Shown here one piece after another: positions 1 through 5,160 of a stretch of 5,160 bases of DNA (position 1 is the stretch's first letter; each line of letters opens with the position of its first letter). The notes below the pieces were generated by a model. It saw nothing but the letters and a program-made list of their open reading frames with translations, made no database searches and was not told where the DNA came from. The DNA is taken from NCBI GenBank assembly GCA_048882505.1, contig JBHLRO010000045.1:1-5160 (forward strand), written 5' to 3'. This stretch comes from Candidatus Thorarchaeota archaeon. Its GTDB lineage: Archaea; Asgardarchaeota; Heimdallarchaeia; Hodarchaeales; Hodarchaeaceae. The translations under genes were made by a program, and so were the position numbers.

Positions 1-99
1 ACAAAGGCCTTGGCTATTCAGGTATGGAAACTAAATCTAGGTGCACAGACATCAGACCGTTCCTTTTTCCCACACTTCCCTTCCTATCGTTCTGATCCA

Positions 100-160
100 T
101 CCTAATCCTATCTGACGATTAGACTGCTCATTTTAACGCGGTAAGCTCTTGCGCGATTAG
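100..160. repeat. Copy A core: 61-bp imperfect direct repeat of the 23S 3' end plus trailer (1768-1828)
   Basis: tcctaatcctatctgacgattagactgctcattttaacgcggtaagctcttgcgcgattag vs tcctaatcctatttgacgattggactactcgtttcaacgcggtcagcccttgcgcgattag: 54/61 identical, ungapped, counted by hand. Weaker similarity extends left to ~47. Confidence 0.95.
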
Positions 161-340
161 TAACATCTATTGTGAAAGTCATAGCTGAGGATTTTGCCCT
201 CCTATAAAACCTCTACACCTGATTCACTTCCCCGAATGTTTCATTCCCGTTCCTTCAGTTTTATTTGGTTCCGAAACGAGGAGTTCGAAAACGACTGTTG
301 ACTCTTTCTTTACCTATTCATTAGCTTTTCATCTTCTTAG

Positions 341-841
341 TTACGGCACAAGAACCGTAGTATTCGTTTCCCATCGATGGAAGCCACTGGGACCTATTGC
401 AATAACCCCAACATAACAAACGGAAGTGGGTGGGAGAGAGAAGAGGGTATGAAATTCAAAGCGTGCTTCCTCATCCACTGCCAAGCTAAGATTTCCTTTA
501 ATAATTGTAACTTTAGTCGCATCCTGGATATCCCCAAGGCTTTTGTTAAATTCTAACCCCCCATCGGGAGTGGAATTGAATTCCATCACTGGTTTCCAGA
601 AATTAATCGGTTCCTTCCAGAGATATACATATTTGATGTGATATTGGTCTCCTTCTGGTCTTGAATCACCCTTGTAATAACAACCTGTGGTAAATCGAAT
701 GGTGCCATTGCTATAAACCCTCTCGTTGTCTACACGGAGTTCCATATACGAGAACGGTGTCAAGGTGAATGGTCTATCCCGAACCAACTCATTATATAGA
801 AGTATGTACCCCCCGAGTAAAACACAGAGCGTGATTGCCAA
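341..841 (-). CDS. Hypothetical membrane-anchored protein (~166 aa or slightly longer) with an N-terminal TM helix and a soluble beta-rich domain
   Basis: Long ORF. The frame is open upstream to 919 (..RISFRIRVVLPLAITLCVLLGGYILLYNE), giving a basic + hydrophobic anchor. The start codon is unclear and no family is recognised. Confidence 0.65.
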   Translation of the reverse strand: MAITLCVLLGGYILLYNELVRDRPFTLTPFSYMELRVDNERVYSNGTIRFTTGCYYKGDSRPEGDQYHIKYVYLWKEPINFWKPVMEFNSTPDGGLEFNKSLGDIQDATKVTIIKGNLSLAVDEEARFEFHTLFSLPPTSVCYVGVIAIGPSGFHRWETNTTVLVP

Positions 842-891: not shown

Positions 892-1226
892 CTATGTTTG
901 CAAAACCTTTCCATAGTTGCTACGTCGTATATTAGCCTACTAATTTCCAAACCCACATTTAAGGCAGATTTGCGGCCCCTCCATTATCTGGATCCTGAGC
1001 TCCAACCGCAGTATTGACGCATGTGTGATGAGTAAATAACTCCCTGCCATCATTGAAATAAAGCCCAACATAGCACATATGAGAAATCCTAGTGGATATA
1101 ACTTGCCCACTTCATGCCTTAGGACTAGAATTATCACCAATGCTCCCATAATCAGGACTACCCCTAATAGGGCCTTGAGATCCCACCTCCTCAAATTTCC
1201 TTCTTGAACATCCAATTTAATCCCAC
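892..1226 (-). pseudogene. Decayed paralog of the 1353-1673 zinc-ribbon membrane protein (ORF 940-1215 plus read-through remnant)
   Basis: AGSYLLITH...PQICLKCGFGN aligns with VGGYLLVIH...PRICPACHFAN. After TAG TAG the same frame reads ANIRRSNYGKVLQT* (stop 892-894), matching ISEGCGHCGTVFTKSD* with both second-knuckle Cys codons altered (CGT, TAT). Confidence 0.7.
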
Positions 1227-1338
1227 CTTACTTCACTCTTACCCTCAATCCTATCAGCGGTTCCAGACATCAGATCGACCCTTTTCACCCACATTCCTTT
1301 GATTGTCCTTCTTCTTACTCCTAGTACTATCTGACGAT
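1219..1338. repeat. Copy B: diverged copy of the 23S-trailer/leader element
   Basis: 1265-1338 vs 1714-1787 is 52/74 identical without gaps. The anchors aatcccacctt (1219/1666), agaYatcagatc (1265/1714) and tcctaRtMctatYtgacgat (1319/1768) recur at offsets of 447-449 bp. Confidence 0.85.
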
Positions 1339-1352
1339 CGCCTGTTTTTTTC

Positions 1353-1673
1353 CTAATCGCTCTTCGTAAACACCGTTCCACAATGGCCACACCCTTCACT
1401 TATGGTTGGATTGGCGAAATGGCAGGCTGGACAGATGCGCGGGGTCGTTATCGATTCCTCCACCATGAGTCCAGAAAGTAGCAGAGGTACATGTATTACG
1501 AGGAGGTATCCCCCGACAATCATTAGAACCAAGGCCAGCGCCCAGGTTTTTGCCTGCTCCTCCGGAATATACGTAAAAAACAACCATCCGATTAAGAATA
1601 GCACCAGGTCAAAAAGCACCTTCATCCCTGCCCCGCTCCAATTGACTTCCTGTTGTTCCAGCTCGAATCCCAC
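1353..1673 (-). CDS. Small membrane protein with 2 TM helices and a C-terminal zinc ribbon (CxxC-x10-CxxC)
   Basis: Hydrophobic segments VLFDLVLFLIGWLFFTYI and WALALVLMIVGGYLLVIHVPLLL, followed by CPACHFANPTISEGCGHCG. Start is uncertain (GTG 1673 or ATG 1625). Confidence 0.8.
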   Translation of the reverse strand: MGFELEQQEVNWSGAGMKVLFDLVLFLIGWLFFTYIPEEQAKTWALALVLMIVGGYLLVIHVPLLLSGLMVEESITTPRICPACHFANPTISEGCGHCGTVFTKSD

Positions 1674-1828
1674 CTTTGGTTTTATTCTACCGCAACTGTT
1701 AATAAACGTGTCTAGATATCAGATCAATCCAATTCCCCTTTACCTCTTCCATTGCGCTCCTTTTTTCTCCTAATCCTATTTGACGATTGGACTACTCGTT
1801 TCAACGCGGTCAGCCCTTGCGCGATTAG
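1666..1828. repeat. Copy C: rRNA-attached copy of the repeat (last ~20 nt of 23S plus ~140 nt downstream)
   Basis: Contains all anchors shared with copies A and B and overlaps the 23S 3' end at 1808-1828. Confidence 0.85.
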
Positions 1829-2145
1829 GGATGGCCAGTTAAACATGTCGGCCGAAGCCTCCACGCGTACGCTGCCATTCTATCAACGGGGTCTTCTACC
1901 CCAGCGCTCGTCTACTTGCCCACAGTTGCCGTCGCCAGCCCCTGTGTCTTTCCAGATACAAGCAGAGTGGATCTTTCTTTTCAAGGTGGGGTTCGTGCTT
2001 AGATGCTTTCAGCGCTTATCCCGTGGCGCGTGCCTGCCCGGCAATGCCCACCCGGACAACCGGTAGAGTAGAGGCGCCGACACCCCGTTCCTCTCGTACT
2101 GAGGGCACCTTCCTTTCAAAGATCCAACACGCTTATAGATAAGGA
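1808..2145 (-). rRNA. rrl: 23S (LSU) rRNA 3'-terminal fragment: H73 3' strand plus domain VI (about E. coli 2609 to the 3' end); partial gene
   Basis: The minus strand reads UCCUUAUCUAUAAGCGUGUUGGAUCUUUGAAAGG..., then the sarcin-ricin loop AGUACGAGAGGAAC (plus 2087-2100), CUACCGGUUGUCC, GGGAUAAGCGCUGAAAGCAUCUAAGCACGAA, GUUGAUAG and the terminal CUAAUCGCGCAAGGGCUGACC. These are conserved LSU domain VI motifs in the correct order. The H94 strands GGAUCUUU/AAAGAUCC pair. Similarity stops abruptly at ~2145, where the expected upstream GUGAGACAG.. (H93) is replaced by AT-rich sequence. Ends are approximate. Confidence 0.95.
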
Positions 2146-2223: not shown

Positions 2224-2595
2224 CTAAGAATCCGTATTGTGGTCAATTTCAGTAAGCATAGAATTGATCTTTTTCCCTGTTTCTGTAAGTCCATATAGTC
2301 TTCCTTTTGTAGATGAAGGTGAAAGACATAAGACAATTCTCCTTTCCTTAAGTTTTGCAAGGCATTCGCTTACCGTTGAGAAGTTAATCTTAAGTTCCTT
2401 AGCCAATTCAGACGGAAAATATGGCCTTTTTCCCAATTGTGTGATAATTCTGTAACGATTTCTACTAATTCTCCCGTAAGAGGCCAGTTCCCATAATTCA
2501 TCCTCGTTACACAACGTTGTTGAACCTCCACACTCAAGTCTGTTGAGCTTCGCCACCCTTAAGTAAAGAATCTTCTTGACATATTTTTGAGTCAA
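2224..2595 (-). CDS. Winged helix-turn-helix transcriptional regulator (ArsR/MarR-like, small archaeal type); true start probably TTG at 2514 (~96 aa)
   Basis: SRNRYRIITQL..PYFPSELAKELKINFSTVSECLAKLKERRIV..KGRLYGLTETGK fits the wHTH pattern (helix, PSELA-x-EL HTH, wing GRxYxLTxxG). GGAGGT (SD-like) lies 9 nt before the in-frame TTG at 2514. Confidence 0.85.
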   Translation of the reverse strand: MTQKYVKKILYLRVAKLNRLECGGSTTLCNEDELWELASYGRISRNRYRIITQLGKRPYFPSELAKELKINFSTVSECLAKLKERRIVLCLSPSSTKGRLYGLTETGKKINSMLTEIDHNTDS

Positions 2596-4900: not shown

Positions 4901-5160
4901 TTACCTATTCCATGTTTCTATCAATTGGAGAAAGGAATTTTTTGAAATATCGAGAAGATCCTTTTTAATTCTTCCATCTTCGAGGAGGATGACTCTGTCA
5001 CCATTTTGAGGGATGTTAAAGTCATGCGTCGAAATAATCAATAAGCAATTTCTTTGTTGAGTGGCTCCACGTAATAAATTAATGATTTCAGTTGCTGTTT
5101 CCATATCTAAGGCTCCAGTTGGTTCATCTGCCAAAATAAGTTTGGGATCATTTACAAGTG
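4901..5160 (-). CDS. ABC transporter ATP-binding protein, LolD/MacB(SalX)-type, C-terminal part (5' end outside the window)
   Basis: The frame is open from the window edge: LVNDPKLILADEPTGALD (Walker B + D-loop) ... LLIISTHD (H-switch) ... DRVILLEDGRI. The TTG at 5134 in the ORF track is internal, not the start. Confidence 0.93.
   Translation of the reverse strand, partial: LVNDPKLILADEPTGALDMETATEIINLLRGATQQRNCLLIISTHDFNIPQNGDRVILLEDGRIKKDLLDISKNSFLQLIETWNR

Follow-up and report, generated by a model that had tools for sequence, protein, structure and literature searches.

The window, a stretch of 5,160 nt, is the first part of the 9.5-kb scaffold C45, which carries a 100-N gap, in the 4.3-Mb, 83-contig assembly of a Candidatus Thorarchaeota archaeon (G000). 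Its single piece of ribosomal RNA lies on the minus strand, and upstream of the piece therefore means window positions above 2143. The features, in the order in which the minus strand is read, are as follows.

2224–2595, minus strand: gene for an ArsR-type winged-helix protein; 82 nt separate its end from the rRNA piece downstream (PF01022 HTH_5, E 2.2e-08).
1819–2143, minus strand: orphan 23S rRNA domain VI, comprising the linker after H93, the 3' strand of H73, H94–H101 and the 3' end (RF02540, BLAST to the 23S of the congener G004, 92/93 pairs canonical).
2087–2100, minus strand, read 2100 to 2087: sarcin-ricin loop AGUACGAGAGGAAC, exact (sequence reading and alignment columns).
1674–1818, minus strand: 23S 3' trailer copy C, with box A at ~1792–1767 and box B at ~1726–1712 (nhmmer match 1848–1623).
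1353–1673, minus strand: 106-aa small membrane protein with a C-terminal CxxC...CxxC motif, the first cassette gene past the trailer (open reading frame).
1216–1340, minus strand: orphan trailer copy B, starting inside box A and lacking any rRNA part (nhmmer match 1340–1177; duplex of -93.6 kcal/mol with the 23S leader).
940–1215, minus strand: 91-aa small membrane, zinc-ribbon-like paralog (open reading frame; copies of 78–79% DNA identity on contigs C47 and C52).
341–841, minus strand: 166-aa open reading frame, no family in the Pfam scan.
21–161, minus strand: short orphan tail copy A, made of the last ~10 nt of 23S (CTAATCGCGC) and the trailer (nhmmer match 161–21; 88.5% identity to 1828–1768).

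When the whole window was scanned with cmscan, one Rfam match was found at E<=1, RF02540 (LSU_rRNA_archaea), running from 2129 to 1819 on the minus strand. It covers model positions 2721–2973 of 2987 with 222.7 bits (E 1.5e-67), well above the gathering cut-off of 50 bits for the LSU covariance model, and the rest of the window gave no further rRNA match at E<=1. Model positions 2882 and 2883 are separated by a lineage-specific insertion of 56 nt. A BLAST comparison with the contiguous 23S of G004 stretched the homology to 2142–1804. At the eroded 5' edge (2143–2131), TTATCTATAAGCG is a worn version of TTATCTATTGGACG in the 23S, a stretch that aligns to E. coli ~2612–2625 (E. coli positions are our own count on the E. 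coli sequence). Recognisable sequence sets in at E. coli ~2608–2613, directly after H93; the best-preserved copy, G007_a, begins ~4 nt earlier, at E. coli ~2608. Pairing was scored on an RNAalifold consensus of 15 copies with 93 pairs, of which 92 are canonical in the window copy; the sole non-canonical one, a C-A pair, is shared with a second copy on contig C52. These results confirmed that the window piece is a clean archaeal LSU rRNA domain VI starting right after domain V. They also bear out what an earlier note had read from the letters of this DNA, namely a stand-alone, intact 3' module of 23S rRNA that starts at about E. coli 2609, at the boundary of domains V and VI, with a winged-helix gene and no domain V upstream.

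The rRNA piece is only one of several 23S-derived elements in the window. Three trailer units were found (1848–1623, 1340–1177 and 161–21), the first of which is joined to domain VI. The sequence of trailer copy C also lies directly 3' of the contiguous 23S in G004 and G007, and it forms a duplex of -86 kcal/mol with the 23S 5' leader on contig C38. The 106-aa protein that follows this trailer has no significant match among Pfam families. Trailer and open reading frame recur together on C47 at 94–96% identity with another left neighbour, and this occurrence of one unit in two contexts indicated that the region is a recombining mosaic. At the far end of the window, the same 77 nt occur on both sides of the 100-N gap (window 5084–5160 and C45:5261–5337), within an ABC-ATPase gene. 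This gene is probably continuous, and the gap itself an artefact of scaffolding with a k-mer overlap.

The remainder of the 23S gene of G000 is found elsewhere in the assembly. The resident gene occupies C38:1–2091 on the minus strand and matches model positions 1–2078, after which the contig ends; model positions 2079–2720 are absent from the assembly. This LSU is of the type common to the congeners, its last 102 nt being identical to G004 and the genome G028 giving the same scores. Its upstream neighbours are ABC transporter and HxlR genes, and those in G007 are different; neither neighbourhood holds a conserved recombinase 5' of the 23S gene. Domain VI occurs a second time at C52:7077–7435, with the same 5' edge and 97% identity to the window piece, and there C52:7081–7391 matches model positions 2721–2973, just as the window does. 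Only one loop base and one compensatory pair (U-A versus C-G) distinguish the two copies within domain VI. A complete archaeal LSU is present at C57:307–3242 (2781 bits). However, it is only 65–71% identical to the C38 LSU and ~75% identical to the window piece, and the contig probably comes from another archaeon binned into G000. Given this divergence, the C57 LSU was dropped as an intact copy of the lineage. The whole-genome LSU scan that the earlier note had proposed thus returned a complete copy, but one that is probably foreign, and a resident 23S whose end at model 2078 is the end of a contig.

The 23S sequence is broken at an identical base in G000 (C38:1) and G028 (C9:72465), after ..GCATGAACGGAT|, at ~E. 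coli 1951, which we take to be a classic rRNA intron site. G004 has normal 23S past this base. The shared break suggests an insertion or intron, or a repeat, at that site.

The same edge was sought in the genus (22 genomes). Orphan domain VI with this edge is present in at least 12 congeneric genomes, in one to several copies each. In G001, G002, G003, G007, G010, G012, G013, G026, G027 and G029, the 5' edge agrees within ~15 nt and the upstream flanks are unrelated; the downstream flank is conserved across the congeners. The G010 copy sits in the middle of a 525-kb contig, three copies lie on one strand of G001:C65 and two on G013:C70, and G012 gave up to 11 BLAST matches to the probe, mostly cut at contig ends. 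The true 23S gene, on the other hand, runs through the edge in two congeners. It is unbroken over model positions 1019–2987 in G004 (C44), and in G007 (C8) its 3' part lies at the end of a contig (54756 to 53898), with orphan domain VI copies at 46678 and 28081, downstream of it and on the same strand. In the comparison with relatives called for in the earlier note, the edge thus recurs in at least 12 congeners, and the 23S gene itself is continuous in G004 and G007.

The true 23S of G007 carries an insertion of ~320 nt after ~E. coli A2577 (G007:C8:54629–54308; L017 ~14310–14630). Its two ends, CTTAGCCTACATCG ... GCGTAGATGCTAAG, are able to pair with each other in the manner of splicing-type introns of archaea. 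G004 has a 46-nt insert instead, located further upstream.

Outside the genus, 13 orphan 23S tails were found in G019, a member of another family of the class (contigs C102, C71, C112 and C95), some of which hold the last 145, 62 or 56 nt of 23S. Since these edges differ from the one described here, the edge appears to be a historical accident of each lineage, and orphan tails extend more widely than the genus. In G022 and G018, which belong to another family and have no orphan tails, the second match of the 23S tail is the 5' leader only, and we regard this condition as the ordinary one.

Repeats of the ~150 nt that follow the rRNA are much more numerous than those of domain VI itself. A trailer profile search found 22 co-oriented copies on six small contigs of G000 (C45, C47, C48, C52, C59 and C81) and 24 co-oriented copies on the 55-kb contig G007:C8; arrays of this kind also occur in G001, G002, G004, G009, G010 and G013. 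The unit consists of two conserved boxes, box A (..CC(T/A)ATCGTCAGATAG..TAGGAG) and box B (CGGTCTGATGTCTG), and a genome-specific spacer. The profile also matches the 5' flank of 23S in inverted orientation (C38:2100–2189), and pairing of leader with trailer along ~110 nt yields duplexes of -86 to -110 kcal/mol. From the inverted match and these duplexes, the repeat unit was identified as the 3' strand of the helix through which pre-23S is processed. In archaea, the tRNA-splicing endonuclease EndA cuts the leader–trailer helix of pre-rRNA, and it does so at a bulge-helix-bulge motif. The orphan repeat corresponds to a genuine 3' strand of such a helix: in G004 and G007 it is found directly behind the real 23S, and its pairing with the leader extends for ~110 nt. 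However, ~20–25 orphan trailer copies per genome lack a 5' partner. Within this family of 23S trailer repeats, the window piece represents the long form.

The arrays are co-oriented and start at the true 23S gene. A tail is followed on the same strand, within ~20–140 nt, by an open reading frame, and the next tail lies within ~25 nt of the stop codon. The resulting cassettes measure 0.6–2 kb and contain no mobility gene, and the short trailer copies begin at scattered points of the profile (12–60). In the G007:C8 array, six small Ras/Rag-like GTPase genes are each headed by an orphan 23S trailer (L017:840–2625, 5736–6230 and 12198–12800; L016:1259–1735). The other cargo includes a Kelch protein, zinc-ribbon membrane proteins, PsbP-like, CBM96, FG-GAP and WD40 proteins and a PIN protein. 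Directly upstream of the long copies lie diverse genes: the ArsR-type winged-helix gene in the window, beta-helix genes (G007_a and G012), an AbiEi-like gene (G007_b) and a gene for a DsbD-like membrane protein (G001_a).

The copies of domain VI are unequally preserved. The numbers of broken pairs among the 93 consensus pairs were as follows.

G007 contiguous gene: 0/93.
G004 contiguous gene: 2/93.
G007_a: 3/93.
G007_b: 4/93.
G010 copy: 4/93.
G001_b: 6/93.
G001_a: 7/93.
G013_a: 7/93.

Several domain VI copies are clearly not functional rRNA. G007_b has AUUACAAGAGGAAC where the sarcin-ricin loop should be, together with a 7-nt deletion; G001_a has two 9-nt insertions; and in G009 domain VI has shrunk to remnants of 45–56 nt adjoining trailers. 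G007_a and G007_b are 93.6% and 93.9% identical to the gene of their own genome and 89.4% identical to each other, values that fit an independent drift of both copies from the resident gene. We also searched the 120 nt upstream of six copies for a local leader that pairs with the trailer, and none paired better than shuffled sequence (z -1.7 to +0.5). As no upstream sequence pairs with the trailer, the orphan copies lack the helix used in archaeal rRNA maturation.

On this evidence, we consider it probable that the window piece arose by partial duplication of the lineage's 23S gene and is an orphan copy of its 3' end, consisting of domain VI and the 3' trailer. It is a surplus copy, and we infer that it is not a component of the ribosome. 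One old illegitimate duplication with its breakpoint after H93, at the end of domain V, may have made the long form. The 13-mer at the edge, eroded yet recognisable in many copies, favours such a single origin over many breakpoints. Recombination between tail copies would then have spread and shuffled the long form. In this Hodarchaeales-type genus, the orphan tails share one orientation and form an array that begins immediately behind the true 23S gene, with short cassettes of unrelated accessory genes between them. Some copies, including that of the window, could owe their intact appearance to recent copying or to occasional conversion by the real gene, while others decay. At most, the window trailer may provide recombination homology, expression signals for the next gene, or both. 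The case of an orphan duplicate had been named in the earlier note only as a way in which its own proposal could fail, and it comes closest to the data.

Several points count against a plain orphan duplicate. In G000 itself, the part of the resident 23S that would span the edge (within model 2079–2720) is missing from the assembly. The searches brought to light no recombination machinery by which the copies could have spread. A breakpoint exactly at a domain boundary is unlikely to arise by chance. The sarcin-ricin hairpin is intact in 5/6 decayed copies, and their broken pairs in H95 number 0/27 versus ~3 expected, a sparing that also speaks against this reading. Finally, the absence of decay in the window copy and its compensatory change relative to C52 point to selection on structure, conversion or repeat collapse. 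We read the freshness of the window and C52 copies as the outcome of recent copying, of conversion from functional alleles, or of a collapse of repeats in the assembly.

The earlier note had offered three explanations of its own, the first of which was a discontinuous LSU rRNA in G000, with domain VI encoded apart and joining the ribosome in trans. It would account for the absence of a contiguous domain V–VI junction from the G000 assembly, for the edge at a natural module boundary, and for the C45 and C52 copies being both structurally intact and distinguished by a compensatory pair. Separate 3'-terminal LSU modules do exist: chloroplast 4.5S rRNA and the small LSU RNAs of trypanosomatids are single-copy, essential parts of one precursor. 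The orphan tails resemble them in forming a separate stretch but, unlike them, are surplus, multi-copy and often decayed, and lie beside a continuous gene. The 23S is continuous in G004 (C44) and G007 (C8), there are at least two copies per genome, copies elsewhere have decayed, and the local processing stem is absent from the six copies tested. Nor was a 5' partner gene ending at ~2608 found, as C38 stops at model 2078 merely at the end of the contig and G028 at the same base. The continuous genes of the congeners, the extra copies, their decay and the missing processing-stem partner leave the split-gene reading unsupported, and we regard trans-joining as highly improbable. An assembly or binning chimera, also raised in the earlier note, would suit a piece on a short 9.5-kb scaffold with a 100-N gap, in a repeat-rich and poorly assembled region. 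However, at least 12 congeneric genomes, assembled independently, show the same junction, and in G010 it lies inside a 525-kb contig, so that a chimera has a next to negligible probability. The remaining suggestion, a 3' part displaced by an inserted element, survives only in modified form: the copies are extra duplicates downstream of an intact gene, and neither integrase nor intron machinery was found. In its developed version, integrative elements or circular cassettes would enter the 23S tail by site-specific or Campbell-type recombination, and every insertion would import its own tail and leave an extra direct repeat, the window piece being a displaced or imported 3' part. As at the att sites of tRNA and tmRNA genes, the direct repeats contain the 3' end of a stable RNA gene and lie downstream of the intact gene with accessory cargo in between (VapBC, AbiEi, surface proteins and small GTPases). 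The co-oriented array starts at the real 23S gene, one cassette of trailer and open reading frame occurs in two contexts at 94–96% identity, and the edge of the long copies is common to several species. In contrast to att duplicates, the repeat here comprises ~330 nt of rRNA and ~150 nt of trailer, the units are very small (0.6–2 kb, without a mobility gene), the short copies start raggedly (profile 12–60), and the edges differ in G019. The tyrosine integrase family PF00589, searched in five genomes, had no match on or near an array contig. LAGLIDADG matches (PF14528) were likewise absent from array contigs and fell mostly in open frames of at least 900 aa, which we read as inteins. Among ~40 array open reading frames scanned with Pfam, as in the PF00589 and PF14528 searches, no recombinase was found between the repeats. 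A free-standing LAGLIDADG_3 gene of 229 aa lies ~1 kb upstream of the 23S 5' end in G007 (G007:C9:2452–3141; L022) and occurs in that genome only. A homing endonuclease was rejected as the agent, given that PF14528 lies off the array contigs and the lone gene near 23S is unique to G007. Integron cassette arrays invite the same comparison. Chromosomal ones are reported in Archaea by Ghaly et al. 2022, as cited in PMC11529989. The present arrays share with integrons the co-oriented, short and unrelated cassettes, the toxin-antitoxin pairs and a conserved repeat of ~100 nt between cassettes. Unlike integrons, they show no IntI-type recombinase in our searches, their repeat derives from an rRNA flank, and they start at an rRNA gene rather than at attI. 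The repeat also has no attC-like hairpin, the fold z-scores of 29 full units lying around 0 (-1.6 to +1.3). With no integrase, no array-linked LAGLIDADG and no repeat hairpin, the integron and classical att models fail on the defining features tested, and we consider an att-type or Campbell-type origin of the window piece, through an enzyme of unrecognised kind, unlikely.

A different role is conceivable for the RNA itself. Orphan domain VI might be co-transcribed with the upstream gene, its hairpin serving as a decoy or buffer for VapC or other factors that dock on the sarcin-ricin loop. In this respect, three long copies, on G000:C52, G001:C65 and G013:C70, are preceded on their own strand by a vapBC pair that ends 23–44 nt before the copy. 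PIN genes are rare (6, 5 and 8 per genome), and the hairpin is spared in 5/6 decayed copies, as described above. The VapC20-like gene of G013 (C70:10291–10692) and G001 (C65:143–544) lies 23 nt upstream of an orphan piece bearing the sarcin-ricin loop, and the best solved-structure match of its product is the 23S-specific endonuclease VapC20 of M. tuberculosis (5wzf, E 8e-16). VapC20 and VapC26 cleave the sarcin-ricin loop (PMC5175351). However, the window copy lies behind an ArsR-type gene and not a toxin gene, and one copy, G007_b, lacks the loop. Orthologs of the VapC20-like gene (73–78% identity) lie in six other genomes on contigs without an rRNA piece, including that of G000 (C37:17597–17995), around which neither an rRNA nor a trailer match was found. 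Across the genus, the linkage of toxin and RNA is not conserved, adjacency being found only in G001/G013 and at G000:C52. Orthology between the PIN genes that precede the C52 and G013 copies was rejected (E 0.003); they belong to two unrelated vapBC types, and the toxin of C52 is similar to VapCs whose target is initiator tRNA. Toxin-antitoxin genes are also a frequent cargo of variable arrays. We hold a sarcin-ricin-loop mimic to be quite improbable. If it were real, the archaea closest to eukaryotes would possess an RNA 'immunity' module derived from rRNA.

The interpretation of the window piece as a probable orphan duplicate removes a tempting but wrong annotation, that of a split LSU rRNA in an Asgard archaeon. 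Scans of these genomes for rRNA will return surplus domain VI matches, and the real 23S locus is usually broken in their short-read assemblies. In the literature on Asgard mobile elements, aloposons, Hodarchaeales 23S and partial 23S genes, we found no report of such an array. The locus is unusual in that a variable accessory array begins at the 23S gene and that copies of a strand from the rRNA's own processing stem form its joints. Among the genes of the arrays are many Ras/Rag-like small GTPases, Kelch, WD40 and surface proteins and toxin-antitoxin pairs, and the presence of GTPase genes behind trailers would tie the growth of a eukaryote-like gene family to this repeat.
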